A stretch of 64,000 nucleotides of DNA from Dehalococcoidia bacterium (lineage in GTDB: Bacteria > Chloroflexota > Dehalococcoidia > Lucifugimonadales > Australimonadaceae), in NCBI GenBank assembly GCA_965208625.1, contig OZ242348.1:1233948-1297947 (forward strand), in the 5' to 3' direction. Within the stretch, counting starts at the first letter, position 1; the number at the start of each line of letters is the position of its first letter. Below, piece by piece: positions 2,807 to 54,501 of this stretch. Under the pieces are notes generated by a model that was not told the DNA's origin, made no database searches, and saw nothing but the letters and a program-made list of their open reading frames with translations. The translations under genes were made by a program, and so were the position numbers.

Positions 2807-4090
2807 ATGCTGACGCAGGAAGCAAACGACCGCTACACCCGTGTAGGCCCCGGCACCCCGATGGGCGAGTTGATGCGACGCTACTGGCACCCCGTCGCCG
2901 CCGTCTCCCAGATGAACGACAAGTGGACGATGAAGGTGCGCCTCCTCGGCGAGGACCTCATCCTCTACAAGGACCGCTCCGGCACCTACGGCCTCATGGA
3001 GCCACACTGCGCCCATCGGCGCATGAACATGATCTACGGCATCCCCGAGGAGCATGGTCTGCGCTGTCCGTACCACGGCTGGCTGTACGACGAGACGGGC
3101 CAGTGCACGGAGCAGCCGTACGAGGAGACGGAGGACCCTGAGGCGCGGTTCAAGGACAAGATCCAGATGAAGGCGTACCCGGTCGAGCAGAAAGCCGGGC
3201 TCCTCTTCGCCTACCTCGGCCCCACTCCCGTGCCGCTGGTCCCCAACTACGACGTCTTCTCGGCGACCGGCGTCTTGCGCGACATCGGCTACGCGATGCT
3301 GCCGTGCAACTGGCTTCAGTGCCAGGAGAACTCGCTGGACCCGGTGCACCTTGAGTGGCTGCACGTCGCGTGGGCCAACTTCATCCGTGAGATGAACGGC
3401 GACGAAGAACGCCGCACCCGCCGCCCACACAAGGTCATCCACTTCGACGCCTTCGAGCACGGCATCATCAAGCGCCGCATCTGGGAGGGCGGTTCCGAAG
3501 AGGACACCGAGTGGAAGGACGGCCACCCCATCGTCTTCCCCAACTACCTCCGGCAGGGCGGCGACGGCTTCAACGTTTCGGACGGGACGTACCGGGGCAG
3601 CTTCTCGATGGGCCCCGCGTTCCAGATACGCACCCCCATCGACGACCACAACACCGCCCACTGGTGGGTCGCCTGCTACCCGATGGTCGAGGGCGACGTC
3701 GAGCAGACGGCGGAGGAGATCCCCTTCTACCTCCCGCCCGTGCCGATGCTGAACGAGAACGACCAGCCCGTCTACCCCGAACTGCGCAGCAACTCCTCGC
3801 AGGACCCGGCGGCGTGGATCACCCAGGGCGGCATCGCGGACCGCACCGGCGAGCACCTGGGCCGCTCCGACAAGGGCATCATCATGTTCCGCCAGATGCT
3901 GGAGGACAACATGCGCATCGTCGAGGACGGCGGCGACCCGATGGAGGTCTACCGCGACCCTGCGGAGAACGTCTACATCCCGTTCATGACGGAGCAGCAC
4001 AACTACGTGGACACCTCCTCGCGGCAGGGGGCGGCGACCATGTACTCGCCGATCCTGGATAGGCGCGAAGCCGCAGCGGCGGCAAAGTAA
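2807..4090 (+). CDS. Rieske [2Fe-2S] non-heme iron oxygenase, alpha subunit, paralog 2
   Basis: MLTQEANDRYTRVGPGTPMGELMRRYWHP; CAHRRMNMIYG...CPYHGW; NWLQCQENSLDPVHLEWLH. AAGGAG upstream of the ATG. Confidence 0.9.
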   Translation: MLTQEANDRYTRVGPGTPMGELMRRYWHPVAAVSQMNDKWTMKVRLLGEDLILYKDRSGTYGLMEPHCAHRRMNMIYGIPEEHGLRCPYHGWLYDETGQCTEQPYEETEDPEARFKDKIQMKAYPVEQKAGLLFAYLGPTPVPLVPNYDVFSATGVLRDIGYAMLPCNWLQCQENSLDPVHLEWLHVAWANFIREMNGDEERRTRRPHKVIHFDAFEHGIIKRRIWEGGSEEDTEWKDGHPIVFPNYLRQGGDGFNVSDGTYRGSFSMGPAFQIRTPIDDHNTAHWWVACYPMVEGDVEQTAEEIPFYLPPVPMLNENDQPVYPELRSNSSQDPAAWITQGGIADRTGEHLGRSDKGIIMFRQMLEDNMRIVEDGGDPMEVYRDPAENVYIPFMTEQHNYVDTSSRQGAATMYSPILDRREAAAAAK

Positions 4091-4230: not shown

Positions 4231-5340
4231 ATGACCCTCATCCTGAACAACGACGACATCGCATCCGTACTGACGATGGAAGAGACGATAGGCGCCCTGC
4301 GGAGCGCGTACGAGGAGCTCGCGCGCACCGAGGCCGTCTGCCGCCCGCGCATCGACATCCGCATCCCCACGTCCGACCCGTCGAAGATGTACCAGTGGGG
4401 CACCATGGAGGGCGGCTCCGCGTCCGGCTACTTCGCCATCCGCATGAAGTCGGACGTCGTCTACGAGCAGGAGTACGGCGGCACGCGCACCCAGGAGAAG
4501 TACTGCCTGCGCCCCGGCCTCTTCTGCGGCCTCATCCTGCTGATGAGCGTCGACAACGGCGAACCCCTCGCCATCATCAACGACGGCTACCTCCAGCACA
4601 TGCGTGTAGGTGCCGACTCCGGCATCGGCGCGGGCTACATGGCGCGCGAGGACGCCTCGGTCGTCGCCATGATCGGCTCCGGCGGCATGGCGCGCTCGCA
4701 CGCCGAGTCGTTCGCCGCCGTGCGCGACATCAAGCGCATCCAGGTCTACAGCCCCACGAAGGCCAACCGCGAGGCCTACGCCGAGGAGATACGCGGCAAG
4801 CTTGGTATCGAGGTCGTCCCGGTGGCGTCCGCGGCGGAGGCGTGCAAGGGCGCGCACATCGTCGCTGGGTGCACTGACGCGGTCGAGCCGGTCATCTTCG
4901 GCAAGGACGTGGAGGACGGCGCGCACATGACCTGCGTCGGCGGCAGCATAGACGGCGAGGCGATGGAGCGCATCGACCGCTCGCTCCGCCTCGGTTCGGC
5001 GCCAGCGCCGGTCGGCATACCGGAGATGCGGCTCCACGACGAGAACATCGCCTACGAGGCCAACGCACCGGACGGCACGCCCGCATCCGCGAGCCAGACG
5101 CGCGAGCGCGCCGGTAGAGGGCACGGCGTCGTTGCCGAGGACCGCGTTGTCTTCCTGGAGGAAGTGCTGCAGGGAGCGCAGGGACGCCCTGGCCCTACCG
5201 CCGTCACCTACTCGGAGCGCGGCAACATCCAGGGCGCGCAGTTCTTCTCTGTCGCGGGCCGCGCCTACGAGCTCGCGAAGGCGAAGGGCCTCGGCCACGA
5301 ACTGCCCACGGAGTGGTTCCTGCAGGACATCCGCGACTAA
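4231..5340 (+). CDS. ornithine cyclodeaminase / mu-crystallin family protein
   Basis: 369 aa. N-terminal LILNNDDIASVLTMEETIGALRSAY and Rossmann loop VVAMIGSGGMARSHAESF are typical of the OCD/mu-crystallin fold. GGAGG RBS. Confidence 0.85.
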   Translation: MTLILNNDDIASVLTMEETIGALRSAYEELARTEAVCRPRIDIRIPTSDPSKMYQWGTMEGGSASGYFAIRMKSDVVYEQEYGGTRTQEKYCLRPGLFCGLILLMSVDNGEPLAIINDGYLQHMRVGADSGIGAGYMAREDASVVAMIGSGGMARSHAESFAAVRDIKRIQVYSPTKANREAYAEEIRGKLGIEVVPVASAAEACKGAHIVAGCTDAVEPVIFGKDVEDGAHMTCVGGSIDGEAMERIDRSLRLGSAPAPVGIPEMRLHDENIAYEANAPDGTPASASQTRERAGRGHGVVAEDRVVFLEEVLQGAQGRPGPTAVTYSERGNIQGAQFFSVAGRAYELAKAKGLGHELPTEWFLQDIRD

Positions 5341-5379
5341 CCCTTGGATTGCGTTCAGGCGCTTTGCTAAGTTCTGCTC

Positions 5380-5544
5380 ATGAACGAACCACCCGGACTG
5401 CCACCGGACAGGGGCAACCCACGCGGAGAGCTGCGGATCGAGCCCAGGGGCAAGCGTTGCCGCATCGCTATCGTCGTGATAGTTGCCTCGCTCTTCCTCA
5501 TAGGCATATTGGCGAGCCTGCTGGACCTCGGGACGCCCGCGTAG
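5380..5544 (+). CDS. candidate 54-aa single-pass membrane peptide
   Basis: My own translation (below the ORF-track size cutoff): MNEPPGLPPDRGNPRGELRIEPRGKRCRIAIVVIVASLFLIGILASLLDLGTPA. Lies in the 380-bp gap between the OCD gene and bicupin A. No clear RBS. Confidence 0.25.
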   Translation: MNEPPGLPPDRGNPRGELRIEPRGKRCRIAIVVIVASLFLIGILASLLDLGTPA

Positions 5545-5721
5545 TCGAGAGTTCCGCTCTGGGTCCACAGGGCAGACCTGCGTTGACCCGCATGTCCGGC
5601 TGATGCAACTGGCTCACCCCGCTGATGCGTGCTCCCCCATACCGCTCCCCGCGCCCCGCCCCTACTCCGAATCCCTCGCACGGAGTAAGATGCGGCCATC
5701 CGGAACCGACGGAGGCTTTGC

Positions 5722-6822
5722 ATGGCGCGACGTTTCACCTACGACGACTGGATGGAAGCCCAGGGCATCCCCATCCACCGGGGCTACTACGTGGAAGACC
5801 TCCGCGTCGCCGAGTTGGGGTGGTGGGAGGACCGCCAGGTCGACGCCGCGTTCATGCAGTTGCGCGGCATGGAGGGCGTGTGCGAGGGCCGCATCGAGGA
5901 GATACCGCCCGGCCACTCGCTCCCGCCCCTGAAACTCTCGGTCGACGAGCAGGTCTACGTCCTCGGCGGACGCGGCGTCGCCACCGTCTGGACGGACGAC
6001 TCCCGCCCGAAGAAGACGTTCGAGTGGGCGACCCGCAGCCTCTTCCTCATCCCGCGCAACTCCTACTGCCAGCTCACCAACATGGACGGCAACAACCCGG
6101 CCCGGCTGCTCCACTACAACTACCTCCCCATAGCCATGTCGGCCACGCCGGACCCGGACTTCTTCGTCAACAACCCGTACTCGACGAACTCGTTCCTGCA
6201 CAGCACCGACGAGTTCTACTCCGAGGCGAAGGCCGTTATGGAGGAGGGCGAGGGCGCGTTCGCCGGACGCGGACGCCAGGTCTGGCACGGCAACTTCTTC
6301 CCGGACATGGCCGCCTGGGACAAGCTCGTCCCGTTCTGGGGCCGCGGCGCGGGCGGACACGTCGTCTTCATCCAGTCGCCCGGCTCGGAGATGCACGCGC
6401 ACATGTCCGTCTTCCCCGCACGCACCTACAAGAAGGGCCACCGCCACGGCCCGGGCCGCGTCATCGTCATCCCCGGCGGCGAGGGCTACTCGGTCATGTG
6501 GGAGGAGGGCAAGGAGAAGGTCGTCATCCACTGGCACGAGGCAAGCTGCTTCGTGCCGCCTGACCGCTGGTTTCACCAGCACTTCAACCTCGGAGGGGCC
6601 GACGGGCGCTATCTCGCGCTCCATCCACCGAACCAGTTCATGGGCATGTCCGAGAAGGTGACGGACAGGGGCCGCGACCAGATCGAGTACCCGAACGAGG
6701 ACCCGTGGATACGCGAGTACTTCGAGGACCAGTTGGCCGAACGCGGCATGACGTCCGAGATCCCGGCGGAGGCGTACGAGGACCCCGCGTACGAGTGGGA
6801 CTACTCCAAGTCCTCGGGCTGA
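5722..6822 (+). CDS. bicupin metalloprotein (cupin A), function unknown
   Basis: 366 aa. The C-terminal barrel carries cupin motif 1 GHRHGPGRVIVIPGGEG and motif 2 PPDRWFHQHFN; the N-terminal barrel is degenerate. GGAGG RBS. Paralog at 16296-17390. Confidence 0.8.
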   Translation: MARRFTYDDWMEAQGIPIHRGYYVEDLRVAELGWWEDRQVDAAFMQLRGMEGVCEGRIEEIPPGHSLPPLKLSVDEQVYVLGGRGVATVWTDDSRPKKTFEWATRSLFLIPRNSYCQLTNMDGNNPARLLHYNYLPIAMSATPDPDFFVNNPYSTNSFLHSTDEFYSEAKAVMEEGEGAFAGRGRQVWHGNFFPDMAAWDKLVPFWGRGAGGHVVFIQSPGSEMHAHMSVFPARTYKKGHRHGPGRVIVIPGGEGYSVMWEEGKEKVVIHWHEASCFVPPDRWFHQHFNLGGADGRYLALHPPNQFMGMSEKVTDRGRDQIEYPNEDPWIREYFEDQLAERGMTSEIPAEAYEDPAYEWDYSKSSG

Positions 6823-6861
6823 CGCCGGGGCGCATGCACGAGCGCGATACGGTAAGATAAG

Positions 6862-6889
6862 GCAGCGCCGGGCATAGTCCCGGCGCTGC
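6862..6889 (+). promoter_or_regulatory. strong stem-loop between cupin A and the EutA-like gene (attenuator or processing site candidate)
   Basis: 11-bp perfect stem GCAGCGCCGGG / CCCGGCGCTGC with a 6-nt loop, followed by GCTGCAATCCTTAATCTT. No equivalent in the copy-B intergenic region. Confidence 0.4.
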
Positions 6890-6918
6890 GCTGCAATCCT
6901 TAATCTTGAGGACACCAC

Positions 6919-8442
6919 ATGCACGACGATGACGACCTCGACCATGCACACGTACTCGACCTCCTGAACGACGAAGAAGCCGAGGACATCGAGGGGATCG
7001 AGAAGTTCACGCTCTACAGCGTGGGCATAGACATCGGCTCCTCCACCACCCACACCATCTTCTCCCGCCTGATCCTCCGCCGCGAAGGCGCAGGGCTCTC
7101 CGCCAAGTTCGTCGTCACCAACCGCGACGTACTCTACCGCTCGCCCATCATGCTCACGCCCTACTCCTCCGGCACCGCTATCGACACGGACAGCGTGCAG
7201 CAGTTCATCGAGCGTTCGTACAGCGAAGCAGGCTTCACGCCGGACGACGTGGACACCGGCGCGGTCGTCATCACGGGCGAGGCCCTCAAGAAGGAGAACG
7301 CCCAGCCCATCCTGGAGTACTTCTCGGAGGAGTCCGGACGCTTCATCTGCGCGTCCGCCGGCCCGATGCACGAGGCGCTGCTGGCAGCGTTCGGCTCCGG
7401 CGCGGTCGCCATCTCCAAGAGCAACGCAAACACCGTGCTGGACGTGGACATGGGCGGCGGCACGACGAAGATATCCCTCATCCGAAACGGCGAGATCGCC
7501 CAGATGGTCGCCATCGAGGTCGGCGCGCGCCTCATCGCGTACGACGACGACATGACCATCTCCCGCGTCGAGCAGCCCGCCCGCACCATCCTCGGTTCGC
7601 TCGGCCAGACGGTCGAGGTCGGAGAGAAGCTGACCGACGAGAAGCGCGAGCTCTTCGCCGCGAAGATGACCGACATCCTCTTCGACGCCATCAGCGGCGG
7701 CAAGGTGGACCCGCTCACGGAGTCGCTCCTGCTCACCGACAGCCTCGACACCGCTTCGCTCGAGGACGTCGACCACGTCGTCTTCTCCGGCGGCGTCTCC
7801 GAGTATGTGTACGACCGCACGAACGAATCGTACGGCGACATCGGGCCGTGGTTCGGAAAGATGGTCCGCGAGCGCTGCCAGCAGACGTTGCGCCCGGGGA
7901 TGCTGGTGATGCCCGCCGAGGGCATCCGCGCCACCGTCATCGGCGCGGGCGAGTACACGCTCCAGGCAAGCGGCAGCACCTCCTACATCTCCACGCACGA
8001 CGTGCTGCCGGTGCGCGGCATCCAGGTCGCGCGGGCGTTCATCAACAAGGAGCAGACTGCGGAAGAGATGGAGGCTGCGCTGTCGGCAGGCGTCGGCAAG
8101 TACGACCTGGAGAAGCTCCCGTCCACCATGGCGCTCGCCATGTCCATAGCCGGACAGCCGGACTACTGGTACATCCGCCGGCTGGCCGAGTCCATCATCA
8201 AGACCGTGGACGACGAGCCGCCGGAGGCCCCGGTCTTCGTCGTCGTGGACGTGGACGTGGCCAAGTCGCTCGGCGGCATCATCCGCGAGGAGTTGCACCT
8301 GGACCGCGCCGTCATCGCGATTGACGGCATCGAGGTGGGCGACCTGGACTACGTGGACGTGGGCAAGCCGATGGGCGCAAGCGAGGTCATCCCCGTCACC
8401 GTCAAGTCGCTCGTCTTCTCCATCCGCTCGCAGTCCGGGTAG
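6919..8442 (+). CDS. EutA-like ASKHA-fold ATPase (ethanolamine ammonia-lyase reactivase family homolog), copy A
   Basis: 507 aa. Phosphate-1 loop VGIDIGSSTTHTIFS and phosphate-2 loop LDVDMGGGTTKISL; length and collinearity are typical of EutA. Paralog at 17436-18998. Confidence 0.8.
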   Translation: MHDDDDLDHAHVLDLLNDEEAEDIEGIEKFTLYSVGIDIGSSTTHTIFSRLILRREGAGLSAKFVVTNRDVLYRSPIMLTPYSSGTAIDTDSVQQFIERSYSEAGFTPDDVDTGAVVITGEALKKENAQPILEYFSEESGRFICASAGPMHEALLAAFGSGAVAISKSNANTVLDVDMGGGTTKISLIRNGEIAQMVAIEVGARLIAYDDDMTISRVEQPARTILGSLGQTVEVGEKLTDEKRELFAAKMTDILFDAISGGKVDPLTESLLLTDSLDTASLEDVDHVVFSGGVSEYVYDRTNESYGDIGPWFGKMVRERCQQTLRPGMLVMPAEGIRATVIGAGEYTLQASGSTSYISTHDVLPVRGIQVARAFINKEQTAEEMEAALSAGVGKYDLEKLPSTMALAMSIAGQPDYWYIRRLAESIIKTVDDEPPEAPVFVVVDVDVAKSLGGIIREELHLDRAVIAIDGIEVGDLDYVDVGKPMGASEVIPVTVKSLVFSIRSQSG

Positions 8443-8466
8443 CGGGAGCGTTCGGAGTCTGGCTCC

Positions 8467-8790
8467 ATGCTCATCGCGGCACTCATCTTCGGACTCCTGG
8501 GCGGCATCGTCGGCCTCTTCATCGGAACGCTCATCTTCGTCGGCGACCTCGTGGACTTTGCATTCCGCGGGGGAGACACCAGCACCGCCGGGCTGTTGGT
8601 GCTGTTCTTCGCCCTCCTGGCCATCGTCGGTTCGATCATGTGCCTTAAGAAACCGTGGCAGGCTGCGACGCTCCTGCTCCTCTCCGGCATCGGTTCCATG
8701 GTCGTCATCAACATATTCGGAGCCCCCATCTTCTTCCTCACGCTCCTGGCGGCCTTCTCCGCCATCCGCGGACGCCGGGAGGTCCGCTAA
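8467..8790 (+). CDS. small integral membrane protein (3-4 TM helices)
   Basis: 107 aa, strongly hydrophobic (LIAALIFGLLGGIVGLFIGTLIFVG..., LLVLFFALLAIVGSIM..., LLLLSGIGSMVVINIFGAPIFFLTLLAAF). Starts 24 nt after the EutA-like gene. Confidence 0.6.
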   Translation: MLIAALIFGLLGGIVGLFIGTLIFVGDLVDFAFRGGDTSTAGLLVLFFALLAIVGSIMCLKKPWQAATLLLLSGIGSMVVINIFGAPIFFLTLLAAFSAIRGRREVR

Positions 8791-8915
8791 CGCGGGCAAA
8801 CGAAAGGGCCGGAACGCCGATCGCGCCCCGGCCCATCTTCTCTCGTCGTTCCTGCGGAGGCACGCGCTTTAGCGCGCAACCTCGCAGCCCCGCCTTCCGT
8901 AGGCAGTGCCGCCGC

Positions 8916-16295: not shown

Positions 16296-17390
16296 ATGGC
16301 TGAAGACTTCACCTACGACCGCTGGATGAATGCACAGGACATACCCGTCCACCGCGGCTACTACATCGAGGACCTCCGCGACATCGAACTCGCCCCGTGG
16401 AGCCTGCGCGAATGCGACGCCGCCTTCATCCAGTTGGAGGGTATGCCTGGCGTGGTGGAGGGACGCGTGCAGGAGGTGCCGCCGGGCGGCTCCATCAAGC
16501 CGTTCAAGCAGGCGATAGACGAGATGGTCTACGTCGCCAGCGGACAGGGCACCGCGTCCGTATGGAGCGGCGACGGCGGCGAACGGCACACGTTCGAGTG
16601 GTCGCCGCGCTCACTGTTCCTGGTCCCGCGCAACTCGTGGGCGCAGTTCAACAACATGCAGGGCGACAGGCCCGCCCGTCTGCTGCACTACAGCTACCTG
16701 CCCATCGCCATGTCCGCCATCCCCAACCCGGACTTCTTCTTCAACAACCCGTATGAGGAAGACGTACTGCGAGGGGCTGACTTCTACTCCGAGGCCGAGG
16801 CAACGACGCAGGAGCACGTGGCCGAGGGCGCAGCGGGACGCACGCTCTGGCTCGGCAACTTCTTCCCGGACATGGGCGTGTGGGACAAGCTGATGCATCG
16901 CCCCGGACGCGGCTCCATGAACCGCTCCGTCTACATGCGCATACCGGGCTCCGAACTGCACGCGCACATGTCGGTCTTTCCCGCCGGGACGTACAAGAAG
17001 GGCCACCGCCACGGGCCGGGCCGCGTCATCGTCATCCCTGGCGGCGAGGGCTACTCCATCATGTGGCAGGAGGGCCAGGAGAAGATGGTCATCCACTGGC
17101 ACGAGGCGAGCTGCTTCGTACCGCCGGACCGCTGGTTCCACCAGCACTTCAACCTGGGCGCCGCCCCCGGACGCTACCTCGCACTGCATCCCCCGAACCA
17201 GTTCATGGGTATGTCCGAGTCCGTGCAGGACCTCTCGCGCGACCAGATCGAGTACCCGGACGAGGAGCCCTGGATACGCGAGTACTTCGAGAACCAACTC
17301 GCCGAGCGCGGCATCGAGTCACAGATGCCGGACGAGGCGTACCGCGACCCCAACTACCGCTGGGACTACACCGGCGTGGAGAATCACTAG
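16296..17390 (+). CDS. bicupin metalloprotein (cupin B), paralog of 5722-6822
   Basis: 364 aa with the same motifs GHRHGPGRVIVIPGGEG and PPDRWFHQHFN. An 87-residue C-terminal tract differs from copy A at only 7 positions (by-eye alignment). GAGGGAG RBS. Confidence 0.8.
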   Translation: MAEDFTYDRWMNAQDIPVHRGYYIEDLRDIELAPWSLRECDAAFIQLEGMPGVVEGRVQEVPPGGSIKPFKQAIDEMVYVASGQGTASVWSGDGGERHTFEWSPRSLFLVPRNSWAQFNNMQGDRPARLLHYSYLPIAMSAIPNPDFFFNNPYEEDVLRGADFYSEAEATTQEHVAEGAAGRTLWLGNFFPDMGVWDKLMHRPGRGSMNRSVYMRIPGSELHAHMSVFPAGTYKKGHRHGPGRVIVIPGGEGYSIMWQEGQEKMVIHWHEASCFVPPDRWFHQHFNLGAAPGRYLALHPPNQFMGMSESVQDLSRDQIEYPDEEPWIREYFENQLAERGIESQMPDEAYRDPNYRWDYTGVENH

Positions 17391-17435: not shown

Positions 17436-18998
17436 ATGCACGACGAGCCCTGGGCGCACATCCACGACCCCGACGAAGAGCGCCTCGCCAAACTCAGCAT
17501 CGAACTGAACAACCCCGACCACGACTACTACCACTACGAGGTCATCGAGCTCACGACGGTCGGAATCGACATCGGCTCCTCCACGTCGCACCTCATGTTC
17601 TCCAGCATCACGCTCCAGCGCGTGCAGGAGATGCACTCCAGCCGGTACGTCGTCGTGGACAGGCAGACGCTCTATAAGTCGCCCATCCTGCTCACGCCCT
17701 ACACGCACGACAACCTCATCAACACGGAGCAGCTGGAACGGTTCGTTGCCGAGTCGTACGCGGAGGCGGGATTCGAGCCGCAGGACGTGGACAGCGGCGC
17801 CATCATCCTCACGGGGGAGGCGATCAAGCGCCGCAACGCTCACGCCATAGCCGACATCTTCGCCGATCAGGCGGGCAAGTTCGTCTGCGCCTCCGCAGGT
17901 CACAACCTGGAGTCCGTGCTCGCGGCCAACGGCTCGGGCTCGGTGAAACTGTCGCGCAACCCGCGCCAGACCGTGCTGAACGTGGACATCGGCGGAGGCA
18001 CGACGAAGTTCGCGCTCGTGCACGGCGGACGCATCCAGCACACCGCCGCCCTCAATGTCGGTGGGCGGCTCGTCGCCACGGACGACGACGGCAGCGTGAA
18101 CCGCATCGAGGACGCCGCGCACACCGCCGCAGACAGCATCGGGGTGCCGCTCGCGCTCGGGGAACCCTTGCCGGACGAGCACCGGACCGCCATCGCGGAC
18201 GCGCTCGCCGAGTGCCTGCTCGACGTGATACAGGGCCGCCCGCGCTCCGAGCTGACCCAGGCCCTGCTGCTGACGCCCGACATCCCGCTCGATGCAACCT
18301 TCGACGCGCTCGTCTTCTCCGGTGGCGTCTCGGAATACGTCTACAACAACGAGACGCAGGAGTTCGGCGACCTGGCGGTCGCGCTCGCGGCAGCCGTCCG
18401 GCGCAAGATGGAGGAACACGCCCTGCCGGCGCCGGTGCAGCCCGCGGCGGAGCGTATCCGCGCCACGGTCATCGGCGCGTCGCAGTTCACCGTGCAGCTG
18501 AGCGGGAACACGCTCTCCATATCGGACCCGTCGCTCCTGCCCTACCGGAACGTCCCGGTGCTCATCTCGCGGCTGCCGGAAGACCACGAAGTGCAGCCAG
18601 AGGAGGTCGCCGCGCTTGTTGGAGAGGCGTTCGAAAGGCAGGACCTCGTGGAAGGCGAGCAGCAGGTCGCGCTCGCGTTCGAGTGGGACGGCCTGCCGCG
18701 CTACGCCCAGATACGGAAGATCGCGGACGGGATCGTGGCCGCGGCGCCACGCTCGCTGGCGAGCGGCGCGCCGCTCATGCTCGTCTTCACCGGCGACTTC
18801 GCCAAGCTCATCGGCGAGACCATCACGAAGGACATGGGCATCCCCAACCCGGTCATCTCCATCGACAACCTCTTCCTGCAGGAGTTCGATTTCATCGACA
18901 TCGGAGAGATGATCTACCCGGCGCGCGTCGTGCCGGTGGTCGTGAAGTCACTGCTCTTCCCGGAGATCGAAAAGCAGACCGCCGAGGTGCTGGACTAG
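17436..18998 (+). CDS. EutA-like ASKHA-fold ATPase, copy B
   Basis: 520 aa. VGIDIGSSTSHLMFS and LNVDIGGGTTKFAL loops. Collinear with copy A, with roughly half the residues identical by eye. Confidence 0.8.
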   Translation: MHDEPWAHIHDPDEERLAKLSIELNNPDHDYYHYEVIELTTVGIDIGSSTSHLMFSSITLQRVQEMHSSRYVVVDRQTLYKSPILLTPYTHDNLINTEQLERFVAESYAEAGFEPQDVDSGAIILTGEAIKRRNAHAIADIFADQAGKFVCASAGHNLESVLAANGSGSVKLSRNPRQTVLNVDIGGGTTKFALVHGGRIQHTAALNVGGRLVATDDDGSVNRIEDAAHTAADSIGVPLALGEPLPDEHRTAIADALAECLLDVIQGRPRSELTQALLLTPDIPLDATFDALVFSGGVSEYVYNNETQEFGDLAVALAAAVRRKMEEHALPAPVQPAAERIRATVIGASQFTVQLSGNTLSISDPSLLPYRNVPVLISRLPEDHEVQPEEVAALVGEAFERQDLVEGEQQVALAFEWDGLPRYAQIRKIADGIVAAAPRSLASGAPLMLVFTGDFAKLIGETITKDMGIPNPVISIDNLFLQEFDFIDIGEMIYPARVVPVVVKSLLFPEIEKQTAEVLD

Positions 18999-48019: not shown

Positions 48020-49075
48020 CTACCCGATCGCGCCGACGACTTCCTGCCGCTTGCCCTCTTCCTCGCGGTAGAGGCCCATCGCCTCGATCACAGGCAGGTC
48101 GCTCATAGAGAAGAGCACTGCGTCGTCTGACGAGTCGGTGCCGTGCTCGTGCAGTGCCCACGAGGGCAGGACGAAGGTGTCGCCCTTCGTCCATTCGAGC
48201 TGCTTGCCGTCGATGATTGAGTAGCCCTCGCCCTTAGCGACGTGGTAGACGACGCTGGACGTGTGGCGGTGGGCTTCGGTGTGCGAGCCGGGCGCGAGAC
48301 GCTGCAGTTTGAGCGCGAGCGTCGGCATGGAGTGCCCGCCCGTCACCGGGTTGGCGTACTCCATCATCACGCCGTCGAAGGGATCCTCTTCGCCGTAGCC
48401 GAGGAGCGCGCCGTAGGCCTCGTCCCACCGGTAGGTGAGCGGGAGAGCGCCGCCGTGGACGTCTCCCAGGTTGGGGCGCATGAGGCCGTTGCCGATAGAG
48501 GCGTTGGTGAAGCCGACGGGCTTGGTCACGGGCTGCACGTCCTCCGGGAACGGCTCCTGGAACATGGCGTCCAGGTAACCGACCAACGGAGCGTCGAGGC
48601 AGTCGAGCCAGATGACGGGCTTGTCGGTCGGGTTGTTGTGGTCGTGCCACGCCCAGCTGGGGGAGAGGACCAAGTCGCCCTCCTGCATCCGGAAGCGCTC
48701 CCCCTCCTGCACCGTGAAGGCGCCTTCACCCTCGATGACGAACCGGATCGCAGCGGCGGTGTGGCGGTGCGCCTCGGCGATCTCGCCGGGCCAGACGATC
48801 TGGACGGCCGCGGACATCGTCTTGGTCGCGCCGGCCATCGGGCTCTTCAGGCCGGGGTTGCGCATCGTGAGCGCCCGGCGGAAGCCCTGCCCTTTCAGGC
48901 TCTCCAGTGCGCCCGCCTGTATCGCCAGTTCGCGCATCTTGTCCCAGCGCCACACGTGCGGCGCGAGTTTCGGACGCTCGGGCGGGTTCGCGTGCATCAC
49001 CCACAGTGGGTTGATGTTCTCGTCGTCCAACTCCTGGTGGTACGCCTTCTCACTCTCCGGCATCGTCCAGGTCAT
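48020..49075 (-). CDS. gentisate 1,2-dioxygenase family bicupin dioxygenase
   Basis: 351 aa. VQIVWPGEIAEAHRHTAAAIRFVIEGEGAFTVQEGERFRMQEGDLVLSPSWAWHDH matches the GDO iron-binding cupin signature. Confidence 0.8.
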   Translation of the reverse strand: MTWTMPESEKAYHQELDDENINPLWVMHANPPERPKLAPHVWRWDKMRELAIQAGALESLKGQGFRRALTMRNPGLKSPMAGATKTMSAAVQIVWPGEIAEAHRHTAAAIRFVIEGEGAFTVQEGERFRMQEGDLVLSPSWAWHDHNNPTDKPVIWLDCLDAPLVGYLDAMFQEPFPEDVQPVTKPVGFTNASIGNGLMRPNLGDVHGGALPLTYRWDEAYGALLGYGEEDPFDGVMMEYANPVTGGHSMPTLALKLQRLAPGSHTEAHRHTSSVVYHVAKGEGYSIIDGKQLEWTKGDTFVLPSWALHEHGTDSSDDAVLFSMSDLPVIEAMGLYREEEGKRQEVVGAIG

Positions 49076-49085
49076 GGTCGTCCTC

Positions 49086-49946
49086 CTACTCTCTTGCCTG
49101 CGCTCTTGCGGACAGTTCGCCTACCTGACTTATGTGTATCGTCACCAGATCGCCCGGTCCAACCGAGCCGACCCCCTCCGGCGTGCCCGTGAAGACGAGG
49201 TCGCCCGGCTCCATGCGGGCCACCCACGACATGTTGGCTATCTGGTTCTTGCAGTCCACGATCATGTCGCGCGTGAATGCGTGCTGGCGTAACTCCTCGT
49301 TCACCCAGAGGTTAATTTCGAGGTCCTGCGGGTCCGGTATCTCGTCTGCCGTCACGATGCACGAACCGATGGGCGCAAAGGTGTCGAACGACTTGCGCTT
49401 GCTCCTGTCCTCGGGTCCGCGCACGGTCATGTCCAGACCGCAGGTGTAGCCGAAGACATGCGAGAGCGCCTCGTCCAGCGGAATCATGCTGCCGCCCCTG
49501 CCGATGACCATGACGAGTTCGGACTCGTGGTGGATGACGCGGTCCGAGTACGGCAGCAGGATGGGGTCGTTCGGGCCGGAGACAGCGCTGGACGCCTTCA
49601 GGAACATCCCCTGGTCGGACGACACCTGGGGAGCGGTGCCGCTCCATGGGCTTTCCTGCATCTCCGCCTGATGCGCCCTGTAGTTGACGGGCTGCGCGTA
49701 CACTTTGCGCGGCGCGGGCACCGGCGGCAGCAGGCTCACGGAGCCGAGCGGCACGCCGCTCTCCGACGCCGCCATCGACTCCACCTGCGGCCGTAGACCG
49801 TCCCATCGCTCGATGAGGAGCAGCATGCGCATAGGCTCGAACTCGTCCGGTAGCTCCGGCAGCAGGCTGGTGACGTCGACGACGGCGTCGCTATCGGTCA
49901 ACACGCCTATGCGGTAATCGTCGAAACTCACGAGGCGCATACGCAC
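49086..49946 (-). CDS. fumarylacetoacetate hydrolase (FAH) family protein (fumaryl-/maleylpyruvate hydrolase candidate)
   Basis: 286 aa. HESELVMVIG, FDTFAPIGSCIV and GDLVFTGTPEGVG. Lies 10 nt upstream of the GDO gene on the same strand. Confidence 0.85.
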   Translation of the reverse strand: MRMRLVSFDDYRIGVLTDSDAVVDVTSLLPELPDEFEPMRMLLLIERWDGLRPQVESMAASESGVPLGSVSLLPPVPAPRKVYAQPVNYRAHQAEMQESPWSGTAPQVSSDQGMFLKASSAVSGPNDPILLPYSDRVIHHESELVMVIGRGGSMIPLDEALSHVFGYTCGLDMTVRGPEDRSKRKSFDTFAPIGSCIVTADEIPDPQDLEINLWVNEELRQHAFTRDMIVDCKNQIANMSWVARMEPGDLVFTGTPEGVGSVGPGDLVTIHISQVGELSARAQARE

Positions 49947-51113: not shown

Positions 51114-51947
51114 CTAGTACATCACGTCCCCACCGGAGACGGAGACAGCAAGGCCGGTTATGTAGTCCGACTCAGCGGACGATAGGAACGCGGCCATTTT
51201 TGCGATGTCCTCGGTTTCCGTAATCCGGCCGAGCGGGTTTGCCCGTGTGCGGTCGGCCACCATCCCCCGCAACTGCTCCTCAGCCGTCGTGCCTGACGGC
51301 TTGATGGCGTCGGCGATGTACGCGGCGCGCTCCGTCTCGGCGAGGCCTGGGCAGATAGCGTTCACGTTCACCCCGTGCGGCCCGAGTTCATGTGCGACGG
51401 ACTGGGTGAACCCAACCAGCGCGAATTTGGACGCCGTGTAAGCCGCGTAGCGCGGCATCCCCCGCTTCCCTGCCGTGGAAGCGATGGTGACGATCTTTCC
51501 CCCTCCCCCACGTTCGATCATGTGGCGCGCCACGGCGCGTGTGCAGAGGAACGTTCCGCGCACATTCACTCGTTGCACCTCGTCGAACGCCTCCTCCGTC
51601 AGCTCCACCAGCGGCACGCGGTCCGGCCCCGGACGCGACCCGGCGTTGTTCACCAGGATGTCTATCCGTCCGAAGCGTTCGAGCGTTTCCTGCACCATCC
51701 GGTCGACGGACGCGCTGTCCGACACGTCACCGACGAGCGCGAGCGAATGGCGTCCTGTTTCGGCAATCTCGGCTGCGACCGACTCCAGCCCCTGCCAGCC
51801 GCCCGCGCTGCCGTAGGGATTCAGCGCAACGTCATTGATGGCTACATCCGCGCCCTCGCACGCGAGGCGGTTGGCGATGGCGCGGCCGAAACCGCGTTCG
51901 CCGCCCGCACCCGTCACCAGTGCAACCTTGCCTGTCAGGTCGTACAT
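51114..51947 (-). CDS. short-chain dehydrogenase/reductase (SDR)
   Basis: Real start is the ATG 51945-51947 (MYDLTGKVALVTGAGGERGFGRAI), 2 nt after the TAA of the upstream amidohydrolase reading frame. YTASKFALVGFTQS active site. Confidence 0.9.
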   Translation of the reverse strand: MYDLTGKVALVTGAGGERGFGRAIANRLACEGADVAINDVALNPYGSAGGWQGLESVAAEIAETGRHSLALVGDVSDSASVDRMVQETLERFGRIDILVNNAGSRPGPDRVPLVELTEEAFDEVQRVNVRGTFLCTRAVARHMIERGGGGKIVTIASTAGKRGMPRYAAYTASKFALVGFTQSVAHELGPHGVNVNAICPGLAETERAAYIADAIKPSGTTAEEQLRGMVADRTRANPLGRITETEDIAKMAAFLSSAESDYITGLAVSVSGGDVMY

Positions 51948-51949
51948 GC

Positions 51950-52976
51950 TTACGCCATCCCGTAGAAACGCTGCGCGTTCAGCCCGACGACCTTCGCCCG
52001 CTGTTCGGGCGTCATGTCCTCGCGAGCGAGCAGATGTTGGATGTTCTCGGGAAATTCGGCGTCCCAGTGGGGGAAGTCGGACGCGAACATGATGATGTCC
52101 TCGCCCAGGATGCGCATCGTCTCCGGCAACATCCGCTTCTTCGGCCTCACAGGAGATGAAGATGTTGCCTGACGCGAGGTACTCGCTGGGATACTTCGTC
52201 AGCAGCGGCGAGTCCACGTGGCCGCGCAGGTGGTAGCGCTCGTCCATGCGGTCGAGCATGTAGACCGTCCAGCCGCAGCCCGCCTCCAGGAACGCGATCT
52301 TCAGGTCAGGGAACTTCTCCGGCACGCCGGACAGCATGATGCTCACGAACTGCTTCATCTGCGTGAACGCATGGCCGAGCGAGTGCACCTGCGAGAGGTT
52401 GTCGAACAGGAACTCGTCATAGGAGCCGGTGATGCGCCCGCTGCCGTGTACCGCCAACGGCACGCCGAGGCGTTGTGCCTCCTCGTAGATCACGTCGAAC
52501 TGCGGCTTGCCGAACTGGTACGGCCCTTCCGGCAGCATCCCGCCAAGCATGCCGAGCTCTTCGACACAGCGCCGTAGCTCCTGGGCCGCGGCGGGCGGGT
52601 CCTGCACGGGCAGCAGCGCAACGCCCTTAAATCGCGAGTCAAGCTGGAGGTAGGTATCGAACAGCCAGTTGTTGTAGGCGCGGGAGCGCACGATCGCGAA
52701 GTCCGGCTCCATGAGCCAGCCCGCGCCGAGGCTTCCCGTAGGGAAGAGCGCTGATGCTGCAAGCCCTCCGCGGTCCAGTGCGTCGAGCCAGACGCCGGTG
52801 TCCACCTGCCGGGTGCCGAGACGGCCACCGAGCGTGTTGTCGAACCCGTCCCGGGGGGAGTTCGCGCTCAGGCGCGGCCTCTCGTTGTAGGGCTCGGGCA
52901 GGTAGCGGCGAATGTCGTCGTCCGAGTCGCGCACGTGCCCATCGGCGTCTATACAGAGGGTTGCCGTTGTCGTCAT
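51950..52976 (-). pseudogene. amidohydrolase-2 family gene interrupted by a 1-nt frameshift near 52130-52145
   Basis: From the ATG 52974-52976 (AGGAG upstream) the product reads MTTTATLCIDADGHVRD...GNIFISCEAEE. The homologous C-terminus (K)RMLPETMRILGEDIIMFASDFPHWDAEF...RFYGMA continues in the +1 frame down to the TAA at 51950-51952. Confidence 0.7.
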
Positions 52977-53208
52977 GCCCGGTCTCCTGTTCCATTTCAT
53001 GTGGCTGGCGAGGCGCAGCATAGGCCGCCGGGGCAAACACGGCAACTTGCCGCGTTGCGTCAGCTTGTGAACAGGAATCACGCATCGACACTCCAACGAT
53101 TGACCGGACGCTTGCGCAAGAGGTAGAGTGCGCCGCAACAATCGCTGGCACCCACCGAACCGCTGGGCAGGCGGCTCGGTGGGACGTGTCTGGAACAGGG
53201 AGGATTTG

Positions 53209-54501
53209 ATGCGCATCCACAGACTCCTGGCCCTCGGCGCAGTCGCCGTGGTTCTGGCCCTCTTTGCGGCGTGTGGGAGCGACGAGCCCACGGCCACCCC
53301 AACGTCCGCTCCTCAAGCGATGGCCGATGATTCCACCCCCACGCCCGAAGCGATGATGGAAGACGCGGCCACTCCCACGCCCGAGGCGATGATGGAGGAC
53401 GCAGCCACTCCCACGCCCGGCGCGATGATGGCGGAACCGACGGCCACTCCCACGCCACGGCCGACGCCCACGCCCGTGCCGCCCCCAGTCGGCTTCGACG
53501 CGGAGGAGTACTTCGGCGGCAAGACGATCAGAATCATCGTCGGTGCAAGCCCCGGCGGCGGCTACGACACGTTCAGCAGAATCGTCGCTGCGACGGCCGA
53601 GCACTACTTCCCTGAGAGCACGCGCTTCGTCGTGCAGAACCTCCCGGGCGCCGGACAGCTTCGTGGTCTCCGGGCAGTGGTCGACTCGAAGCCAGACGGC
53701 TACACCATCGGCCCGACACACTCGCGCTGGTTCCAGCGACAGCTGTATGTGGGCGACGTCACCGGATTCGACATCGACGCCATCCACATCCTCGGCTCAC
53801 CCACGTTCGCTGTTAACCCCGACGGTTTCTGTCTGGACAAGAACTTCGCCTCCTCCTGGCAGGAGGTGCTGGACAGGGACCTCACGATCAGGGTCGGCTC
53901 CGCAGGGCCAGGCAACGAGCCGGCCATCGAGTTCATGATCGCGAACGGCGGCCCGTTCAATCTGATCTACGGTTACGGCGGCTCGACCGAGATCATGGCG
54001 GCGTTCGACCGTGGCGAGGTGGACGGAACAGGCCGGTGCGGCCCGAGTACCGCCGGGCGCCTCTACCCCGAGTGGATAGATGATGGACGCCTCGTGCCAA
54101 TCTTCTACGAGGCGAAGCCGTACACCGATGAGTGGCTGGCCGAACTCGGGCACACCGGCCCGCTGCCCTGGTACCTCGACCTCCCCGGCATCCCGTTCGA
54201 CGACCCGATCCGGAACAAAGCGAACGACCTGAACCTGCTTGTGTCCGAGATATCCCGCGTCTTCTTCCTGCCCCCAGGCGTTCCGGACGACGTGAAGCAG
54301 TACTGGCAGTCGGCGTTCGATCAACTCGTGTTGGACGAACGGTTCATCGAGCAGCTCACCATCGCCGGCTACCAGGAAGACTACGGCTATGGAAGGGCCG
54401 AGGACATCATGGCGATCGTGGAGCAGGTCCGGAACACTGATCCCGAGATCCTCCAGGCAGCCCTCGAACTGAGCGGCGTCGGCGACCTCATAGTGAACTA
54501 A
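53209..54501 (+). CDS. tctC: TctC-like (Bug family) solute-binding lipoprotein with a repeat-containing linker
   Basis: Start set at the ATG 53209 (GGGAGGA upstream). Lipobox LFAAC; linker with TPTPEAMMEDAA repeats; IIVGASPGGGYDTFSRIVA. Confidence 0.75.
   Translation: MRIHRLLALGAVAVVLALFAACGSDEPTATPTSAPQAMADDSTPTPEAMMEDAATPTPEAMMEDAATPTPGAMMAEPTATPTPRPTPTPVPPPVGFDAEEYFGGKTIRIIVGASPGGGYDTFSRIVAATAEHYFPESTRFVVQNLPGAGQLRGLRAVVDSKPDGYTIGPTHSRWFQRQLYVGDVTGFDIDAIHILGSPTFAVNPDGFCLDKNFASSWQEVLDRDLTIRVGSAGPGNEPAIEFMIANGGPFNLIYGYGGSTEIMAAFDRGEVDGTGRCGPSTAGRLYPEWIDDGRLVPIFYEAKPYTDEWLAELGHTGPLPWYLDLPGIPFDDPIRNKANDLNLLVSEISRVFFLPPGVPDDVKQYWQSAFDQLVLDERFIEQLTIAGYQEDYGYGRAEDIMAIVEQVRNTDPEILQAALELSGVGDLIVN
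53335..53445. repeat. 36-bp in-frame tandem repeat (2 good copies plus 1 degenerate) encoding TPTPEAMMEDAA
   Basis: Units 53335-53370 and 53371-53406 differ at a few mostly third-codon positions. 53407-53445 is a degenerate third unit. Confidence 0.7.

Follow-up and report, generated by a model that had tools for sequence, protein, structure and literature searches.

EutA spends ATP on opening ethanolamine ammonia-lyase and exchanging its damaged cobalamin, and other ASKHA ATPases (DdrAB, GdrAB and the Hsp70-type HscA) remodel a specific client or scaffold for cofactor exchange or transfer. XylT-type ferredoxins reactivate catechol 2,3-dioxygenase, and MoxR/VWA proteins (NorQD, CbbQO) insert metal into enzymes or remodel them. 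Here we describe, in a 64-kb window (the whole stretch of DNA analysed; 65% GC) from a metagenome-assembled genome (MAG) of a Dehalococcoidia bacterium, a gene for a two-barrel cupin (bicupin A) followed by a gene for an ASKHA ATPase of the EutA family (ATPase A), together with a second such pair (bicupin B and ATPase B; Table 1). The cupin-ATPase pairing is real and old, and its ATPases form a clade separate from true EutA. With E. coli EutA (b2451) they share the Pfam family, the ASKHA loops and a length of ~470-510 aa, and probably also the logic of an ATPase that serves a single partner enzyme from a neighbouring gene; the partner, however, is a bicupin (in one subclade a metallo-beta-lactamase (MBL)-fold protein) and never EutBC, no cobalamin or microcompartment genes lie nearby, and EutA lacks the SSTxH sequence, Cys144 and the MHD/His-acidic tail of the cupin-associated clade. 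DdrAB, GdrAB and HscA belong to other families (there was no PDB sequence match, and they are absent among the 50 listed Foldseek matches) and they handle cobalamin or an Fe-S cluster, not a lone metal ion; XylT and MoxR/VWA share the concept of a co-encoded, dedicated reactivation or metal-insertion factor for an oxygenase or metalloenzyme, but their folds and energy coupling (electron transfer; AAA+) are wholly different.

ATPase A has a full-length match to EutA in Pfam (PF06277; E = 4.4e-125, its residues 31-500 covering model positions 2-474 of 475), in agreement with a preliminary description of this DNA, made from the sequence alone, which had called it EutA-like with ASKHA loops; ATPase B and an Acidocella homolog likewise match PF06277. 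All four NCBIfam EutA equivalogs (NF007991-NF007994) nevertheless stay below cut-off (best scores of 365 bits for ATPase A and 346 bits for ATPase B, versus 598), and members of the clade are 31-34% identical to E. coli EutA (ATPase A, 31%). The ASKHA loops are invariant in our alignments (A3 and A4): GIDIGSST, D177-x-G179-G180-G181-T182 and S290-G291-G292, and also SGGVSE. The first phosphate loop reads SSTxH in the clade versus T(T/S)TTQ in eutBC-linked EutAs, and the invariant Cys144 is specific to the cupin-associated clade. Foldseek with the AlphaFold2 (AF2) model of ATPase A (pLDDT 76) retrieved only generic ASKHA folds (Ppx/GppA, HgdC (1hux), actin and MreB), and Pfam gives weak additional matches to Hydantoinase_A and BcrAD/BadFG over the ASKHA core; no family other than those of ASKHA type was matched in Pfam, NCBIfam or Foldseek, and no G3E P-loop GTPase or MinD-type domain was found. 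The EutA family as a whole comprises 756 clusters at 50% identity (E < 1e-30), and ATPase B is nearest in type to rhizobial homologs, with 47% identity.

A search for the cupin family returned 2,436 matches, the 120 best of which are at least 59% identical to cupin A and spread across phyla. Scanning one genome per species gave at least 592 cupin loci, of which 79 were fetched (from Dehalococcoidia/SAR202, Binatia, 'Deltaproteobacteria'/Thermodesulfobacteriota, Verrucomicrobiia, Alpha- and Gammaproteobacteria and a cultured Micromonospora) and 78 cupin-seeded loci were counted. An EutA-like gene is present in 32 of the 78, and in every one of these 32 it lies on the same strand beside a cupin, within 310 nt; cupin-ATPase-cupin is a frequent arrangement. 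When metagenomes were scanned with a seed clade ~40% identical to ATPase A, an adjacent cupin was found in 50 of 61 loci with informative flanks, while EutB or EutC occurs in none of 80 metagenome loci. Among individual homologs, P0226 (56% identity) has a cupin directly upstream, in a two-gene unit behind an ATP synthase operon, and P0193 (64% identity) has one a gene away. In a plasmid collection, four matches reach 40% identity or above (Phyllobacterium zundukense and three species of Sinorhizobium), and each of them is immediately preceded by a cupin gene of 32% identity; there are 22 matches at 35% identity or below, and the four inspected (Acetoanaerobium, Haladaptatus, C. difficile and Brevibacillus) all have eutBC in the cluster, as does the E. 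coli eut locus, these five canonical EutAs being our positive controls. In 69 adjacent pairs, 55 of which have the cupin upstream, distances between the cupins track those between the ATPases (matrix correlation r = 0.81, Mantel p = 0.001); this shows joint inheritance of the two genes as one unit and does not by itself prove protein contact. Adjacency is kept down to 32%/40% identity in Chloroflexota, Binatia, Thermodesulfobacteriota, Actinomycetota and Alphaproteobacteria. It is a property of clades: at 35% distance, most of the larger cupin clusters are either all-adjacent or all-free. A separate case is P0340 (606 aa), the representative of a 50%-identity cluster: its EutA-like region (~50-477) passes directly into a cupin-family C-terminal barrel (YKKADRH...HQHFN), through either a natural fusion or deletion or a chimeric assembly.

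We also searched directly for the partners of a true EutA. With tblastn, E. coli EutB, EutC and EutQ have no match in the window, nor in genome loci totalling 1.24 Mb; overall, some 1.7 Mb of related loci are free of EutB, EutC, B12 and microcompartment genes. Pfam annotation of nearly all window genes revealed no B12-binding, mutase, dehydratase or microcompartment gene; the preliminary description had likewise seen no such gene in the window. Its view that the ATPase does not reactivate ethanolamine ammonia-lyase fits the specific, long-lived cupin linkage in loci from several phyla, and its remark that the pair maps to no characterised system holds for NCBIfam (no cupin model), the PDB (no relative) and the literature (no match).

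The surroundings of the pair are much less constant than the pair itself. The 107-aa membrane protein that the preliminary description had included in the cassette occurs only in L001-L003, L005 and L007, where the cupin is at least 97% identical to cupin A, and the order Rieske-Rieske-ornithine cyclodeaminase (OCD) upstream recurs in L001-L003 and not in other phyla. The proposed aromatic or alicyclic catabolic context is not conserved either. In Binatia and 'Deltaproteobacteria' MAGs (L012, L014, L018-L020, L022, L026, L029, L031 and L082) the pair lies directly 3' of atpA-atpG-atpD-atpC, often with one or two EamA transporter genes and another cupin behind it; this position may reflect either co-transcription with the atp operon or lineage synteny only. 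The pair can also stand alone, as in Binatia, where it follows atpAGDC with unrelated genes downstream. In rhizobia the order is TctA-TctB-TctC-(thiamine pyrophosphate enzyme-oxidoreductase)-cupin-ATPase-LysR; for example, in locus L087, on the Phyllobacterium zundukense plasmid NZ_CP104971.1 (469795-472597), RefSeq names the ATPase (WP_262291242.1) 'ethanolamine ammonia-lyase reactivating factor EutA' and the cupin (WP_262291241.1) 'hypothetical protein'. In the search output, the cupin and the ATPase each appear at two places in these rhizobial plasmid records. Cupins free of an EutA-like gene typically have Rieske/LigXa_C oxygenases, solute-binding proteins or TctC-TctA, Amidohydro_2 and GFO/IDH/MocA genes as neighbours. 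A link to the ectoine 'Eut' pathway, considered from the OCD, aminotransferase and GNAT neighbours, was rejected: that EutA belongs to another family and these neighbours are lineage-specific.

Among the 11 metagenome loci without a cupin, seven ATPases end in a His-bearing tail such as RGHHHHHHHHHDD. A gene of 200-214 aa from the MBL superfamily (PF14597) begins at or just after the ATPase stop in four of these loci (L096, L099, L100 and L108), and also in L106, which had been classed as uninformative. In these five loci the ATPases belong to a sister subclade, with the MBL gene translationally coupled downstream and the cupin absent, and they bear C-terminal His tails of the RGHHHHHHHHHDD kind.

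Cupin A gives only a weak, sub-threshold match to Cupin_2 in Pfam, cupins A and B have no NCBIfam match, and neither Pfam nor NCBIfam (June 2026) holds a model specific for this cupin family. The AF2 model of cupin A shows two beta-barrels (pLDDT 86, pTM 0.87); Foldseek with this model returned generic bicupins only (vicilins, oxalate decarboxylase and MncA; E ~1e-14, TM-score ~0.45), which, like the ASKHA matches of the ATPase model, gave no functional lead, and PDB sequence searches found no solved relative of the cupin or of the ATPase. In an alignment of 26 sequences, the invariant columns of the C-terminal barrel are H227, Y236, H240-R241-H242-G-P-G, W271, E273, W283 and H285-Q-H287-F-N289. 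Both motifs reported in the preliminary description, GHRHGPGRVIVIPGGEG and PPDRWFHQHFN, are present and fall in the most conserved region of the family; its statement that both are classical has to be amended, since the canonical Glu position of motif 1 is occupied by a nearly invariant arginine (Arg246). The predicted metal site is therefore formed by three histidines (3-His: H240, H242 and H285, invariant in 93 of 93 family members examined) and not by a 3-His-1-Glu set. The N-terminal barrel is without His ligands and has PLK..DE at the positions aligned to the site of gentisate 1,2-dioxygenases (GDOs).

Profile alignment (hhalign) of the family with a GDO-family bicupin from the window is collinear over both barrels (probability 87%, E = 3.7e-6, 229 columns, 20% identity) and pairs HRH...WFHQH with HRH...LHEH of the GDO C-terminal barrel; the sole specific PDB profile match is GDO 3bu7 (E = 0.0014, C-terminal barrel only), alongside weak profile matches of this barrel to cupin-type phosphoglucose isomerases. 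Thus, judging from the collinearity and the 3bu7 match, the family would be a distant GDO-like bicupin that has kept its metal site only in the C-terminal barrel. Like the GDOs (TIGR02272; 3bu7, 2d40), it has ~350-370 aa, two cupin barrels and the HRH...WxHxH signature of a 3-His Fe(II) site, and Rieske hydroxylases and carboxylate transporters are sometimes neighbours of both. It differs in having lost HRH from the N-terminal barrel, which in GDOs is the catalytic one, and in having no NCBIfam GDO match, no adjacent fumarylpyruvate (FAH) hydrolase and an identity of only ~20%. A dioxygenase-type reaction on a carboxylated substrate is what we infer, and it is plausible. The GDO-family bicupin of the window is itself canonical (TIGR02272 E = 7e-91, with HRH in both barrels) and adjoins an FAH-family hydrolase gene, so the genome has an ordinary GDO cassette besides the new cupin family.

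The other distinctive feature lies at the ends of the ATPases. The clade carries an N-terminal extension of ~30 aa, whereas canonical EutAs begin a few residues ahead of the GIDIG loop; the extension is absent in all five eutBC-linked EutAs compared. Its residues include 2-7 His, with HxH motifs, and 9-14 Asp/Glu, and it closes with a conserved E-D-I-E-G-I/L-E. Of 120 close homologs, 94 have MHD as their first three residues, and several of the others MHE or MHG. In ATPase A the start codon is fixed by an in-frame stop 9 nt upstream of the ATG, and residues 1-27 have a pLDDT of ~32 in the AF2 model, that is, predicted disorder. We surveyed the 150 best representatives of the 50%-identity clusters: many have overt poly-His tails (MHDDHDHDHDHDHG, HHYHHHHSHDHSDD and HHHDHDHPHGHGHGHGHDAEHGHGH), and in more distant representatives such tails are N- or C-terminal (e.g., P0261, P0324, P0291 and P0332, the last with 20 His among its last 40 residues, at the C-terminus). 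Low-GC organisms supply six EutA-like representatives (P0336, P0372, P0375, P0378, P0382 and P0385) that are extended at the N-terminus by a further domain of ~200 aa; with its CxxC...HH motif, this domain may be a module binding Zn or another metal.

We propose the tail of ATPase A as a candidate metal-binding or partner-docking element. Ni, Co and Zn chaperones typically have His-rich tails, and the Met-His-Asp/Glu start and flexible His/Asp/Glu-rich tails of the clade resemble the MHE of HypA and the His-rich tails of HypB, UreE and SlyD. The invariant N-terminal MHE of HypA binds Ni via the Met1 amine, His2 and Glu3 (PMC5557546). Metallochaperones of the Ni, urease and hydrogenase systems are also encoded beside their client metalloenzyme, with an NTPase implicated in delivery. 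They differ from the clade in that here an ASKHA ATPase, not a G3E P-loop GTPase, is fused to the tail, that there is no HypA-like Zn-ribbon, and that the client would be a mononuclear 3-His cupin.

An EutA-family ATPase, a conserved cupin neighbour with a 3-His site and metal-chaperone-like tails together make an ATP-driven metal-centre chaperone or reactivase for the cupin the best-supported function of the ATPase; we put it forward tentatively, a little short of an even call. The cupin and the EutA-like protein would then be a two-gene functional module, in which the cupin would be a non-haem metalloenzyme, most likely of an Fe(II)- or Ni/Co/Mn-dependent dioxygenase type with a carboxylated small molecule as substrate, and the ATPase would be an ATP-hydrolysing ASKHA accessory factor dedicated to its single 3-His centre in the C-terminal barrel. 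By analogy with EutA, the ATPase would bind the cupin and use the conformational work from ATP to insert the correct metal ion or, alternatively, to exchange a wrong or oxidised one, and the flexible acidic tail (Met-His-Asp start, HxH motifs) may hold the ion or hand it over. That such proteins are the first ASKHA-fold metallochaperones, driven by ATP and inserting or exchanging, by means of the N-terminal Met-His-Asp/poly-His tail, the metal of 3-His cupins and of the MBL-fold protein of the sister clade, is a bolder proposal that we regard as possible but rather doubtful.

Several observations weigh against a metal-centre chaperone. More than half of the sampled cupin family members have no EutA-like gene within 8 kb although their metal site is identical: the key histidines are invariant in EutA-adjacent and EutA-free cupins (40/40 and 53/53), and a search for residues that separate the two sets yielded only clade-level differences. 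Hence, barring action in trans, not every member of the cupin family needs the ATPase. In some EutA-like representatives the N-terminus is short and has no His at all, and the acidic His-bearing tails could act in protein docking and not in metal binding. The MBL-like partner reads NRNHSR at the expected HxHxDH and may not be a metalloprotein. To our knowledge, the known NTP-dependent chaperones for mononuclear metal sites are all P-loop, MinD or AAA+ proteins, and none has an ASKHA fold (PMC11672702). The suggestion of the preliminary description that the ATPase loads a metal or repairs the centre finds independent circumstantial support in the MHD/His-acidic and poly-His tails, absent from canonical EutAs. 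The many cupin clades that have the identical site and no adjacent ATPase are the main weakness of a metal-centre chaperone.

The pair could instead be a two-component ATP-dependent enzyme, in which the EutA-like protein is a kinase-type subunit that activates a small molecule and the cupin isomerises, cleaves or (de)carboxylates it; in hydantoinase A/oxoprolinase and acetone carboxylase an ASKHA subunit activates the small-molecule substrate with ATP. The weak Hydantoinase_A and BcrAD/BadFG matches over the ASKHA core would fit such an enzyme, as would the tight operonic coupling and co-divergence of the two genes, the frequent TctABC carboxylate transporters and the weak profile matches of the C-terminal cupin barrel to cupin-type phosphoglucose isomerases. 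However, it is EutA, a factor that remodels proteins, and not a kinase that the ATPase matches collinearly over its full length, and the Hydantoinase_A match spans just ~100 residues of the common fold; the His-rich and poly-His tails would be left unexplained, many cupin clades do without the ATPase despite identical active-site residues, and the MBL partner of the sister subclade suits a protein-directed factor better than a fixed pathway step. We consider this enzyme unlikely. We also rate as improbable, to the same degree, a reactivase without metal delivery, which would open the cupin with ATP to free a tightly bound dead-end product or inhibitor or to reset Fe(III), the tail being a docking or autoinhibitory element. 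Such a factor would be nearest to the documented mechanism of EutA, for which Mori et al. reportedly described, in 2004, ATP-dependent release of the damaged cofactor; Fe(II) ring-cleavage dioxygenases need dedicated reactivation (e.g., by the XylT ferredoxin), and the linkage evidence favours it just as it favours a metal chaperone, from which it is hard to tell by sequence. Alone, it leaves the poly-His tails of the distant members unexplained.

Two further explanations carry far less weight. An ordinary EutA whose client, ethanolamine ammonia-lyase or a different B12 enzyme, is encoded at another site in the genome, the cupin being a chance neighbour, would agree with the Pfam family membership, with the name that public annotation pipelines use and with the frequent use of corrinoid enzymes by Dehalococcoidia; this is largely refuted, and we give it hardly any credence, given the lack of EutB and EutC in the window, the genome loci and the metagenome loci, the missed cut-off of every NCBIfam EutA equivalog, the signatures that the clade has of its own, and a cupin adjacency that persists over five groups. 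Similarly, we think it very unlikely that the ATPase is an ATP-coupled electron-transfer activator of the HgdC/BcrAD kind, in which an Fe-S cluster bridging the dimer would reduce the metal centre of the cupin. The weak BcrAD_BadFG match, HgdC among the Foldseek matches and the clade-specific C144 speak for such an 'archerase'-type activator, but the match is limited to the generic ASKHA core and no ferredoxin or flavodoxin is consistently adjacent; we reject it because only one Cys per chain is conserved, and HgdC-type clusters need two per monomer.

In the window itself, the three open reading frames (ORFs) of the first cassette match the preliminary description exactly in coordinates and lengths (366, 507 and 107 aa) and in the spacers, which are 96 nt between cupin A and ATPase A and 24 nt between ATPase A and the membrane protein (Table 1). 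Third-position GC is 0.87-0.94 in all three, the level of real genes here. Cupins A and B are 68% identical, and ATPases A and B 40%. Cupin A is 99% identical to its counterpart on a Dehalococcoidia MAG contig; an exact-sequence look-up placed it on just two short metagenome contigs, where the gene order is the same, and found no match for ATPase A. The 107-aa membrane protein shows three broad hydrophobic regions in its hydropathy profile and has no family match in Pfam or NCBIfam. The hairpin in the cupin A-ATPase A spacer is GC-rich, without a T-run on the + strand, and is followed by a GAGGA ribosome-binding site; it may act in mRNA processing or stability or may set the cupin:ATPase expression ratio. 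A strong hairpin downstream, between the convergent membrane-protein and dienelactone-hydrolase genes, likely marks the 3' end of the unit. A scan for a sigma-70-like promoter found none, and Rfam gave no RNA at gathering thresholds in the window; in the search for a metal-sensing riboswitch, the region 5300-7000 gave only a chance-level match (E = 0.38).

Table 1. Positions in the 64-kb window of the cupin-ATPase pairs and of other features named in the text.
Feature	Position	Strand	Size	Basis or remark
Bicupin A	5722-6822	+	366 aa	ORF and translation
EutA-family ASKHA ATPase A, cupin-associated clade	6919-8442	+	507 aa	Pfam PF06277
N-terminal tail of ATPase A, MHDDDDLDHAHVLDLLNDEEAEDIEGIEKFTLYS	6919-7020	+		3 His, 13 Asp/Glu; predicted disordered
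Membrane protein	8467-8790	+	107 aa	Hydropathy: 3-4 hydrophobic helices
Bicupin B, paralog of A	16296-17390	+	364 aa	Cupin_2, E = 2e-6
EutA-family ATPase B, tail begins MHDEPWAHIHDPDEE	17436-18998	+	520 aa
Two Rieske/LigXa_C oxygenases, upstream of cupin A	1039-2367, 2807-4090	+		Pfam
OCD/mu-crystallin family protein, upstream of cupin A	4231-5340	+		Pfam
GC-rich hairpin, cupin A-ATPase A spacer	6862-6889	.	11 bp stem	Terminator-like scan
GAGGA ribosome-binding site	6907-6911
Strong hairpin, T-rich tail on - strand	8806-8834	.	12 bp stem	Terminator-like scan
Canonical GDO-family bicupin	48020-49075	-	351 aa	TIGR02272
GDO-FAH cassette	48020-49946	-
ORF with Amidohydro_2 and short-chain dehydrogenase matches	51114-53297	-	727 aa

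Other families that Pfam assigned among nearly all called genes of the window are Rieske/LigXa_C, Amidohydro_2, GFO/IDH/MocA, TctA and MFS, with six Rieske/LigXa_C paralogs and several Amidohydro_2, GFO/IDH/MocA and TctA genes. A Binatia chromosome (OZ244621.1, locus L028) carries three tandem Rieske-cupin gene pairs, and together with the window it points to a toolkit of the 'Rieske + cupin + decarboxylase-type hydrolase' kind whose paralogs have strongly expanded. The 727-aa ORF of Table 1 contains an Amidohydro_2 match (residues 206-362) and a complete short-chain dehydrogenase (457-723), and is either a true fusion or a pair of genes that the mechanical ORF call has joined.

Full-text literature searches found no description linking EutA homologs with cupins, and the cupin-ATPase pair appears to be undescribed. 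Public pipelines apply the name 'ethanolamine ammonia-lyase reactivating factor EutA' to the ATPase, including the one of the rhizobial TctABC-cupin operon. An enzyme with a dedicated ATP-dependent accessory factor is a known principle; a role of an ASKHA protein as metallochaperone, if confirmed, would be categorically new, and would place a new fold on the short list of NTP-dependent metal-insertion machines. Since the pair is also present in culturable, genetically tractable rhizobia, the hypothesis is directly testable. If it is true, much of the EutA family, with many members in environmental genomes, is misnamed, and ethanolamine and B12 metabolism is over-predicted in MAGs of Chloroflexota, Binatia and others. 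The bicupin family is large and of uncharacterised chemistry, and it has expanded beside Rieske oxygenases, decarboxylase-type amidohydrolases and carboxylate transporters, in lineages that are thought to degrade recalcitrant organic matter. The 'reactivase' principle would then extend from cobalamin enzymes to simple metalloenzymes, with an actin/Hsp70-fold ATPase acting on a mononuclear centre, and the abundant uncultured lineages that carry the pair (SAR202, other Dehalococcoidia and Binatia), like the cultured rhizobia, would possess a new class of metal-centre assembly or repair factor, systematically mis-annotated as a B12-enzyme reactivase.

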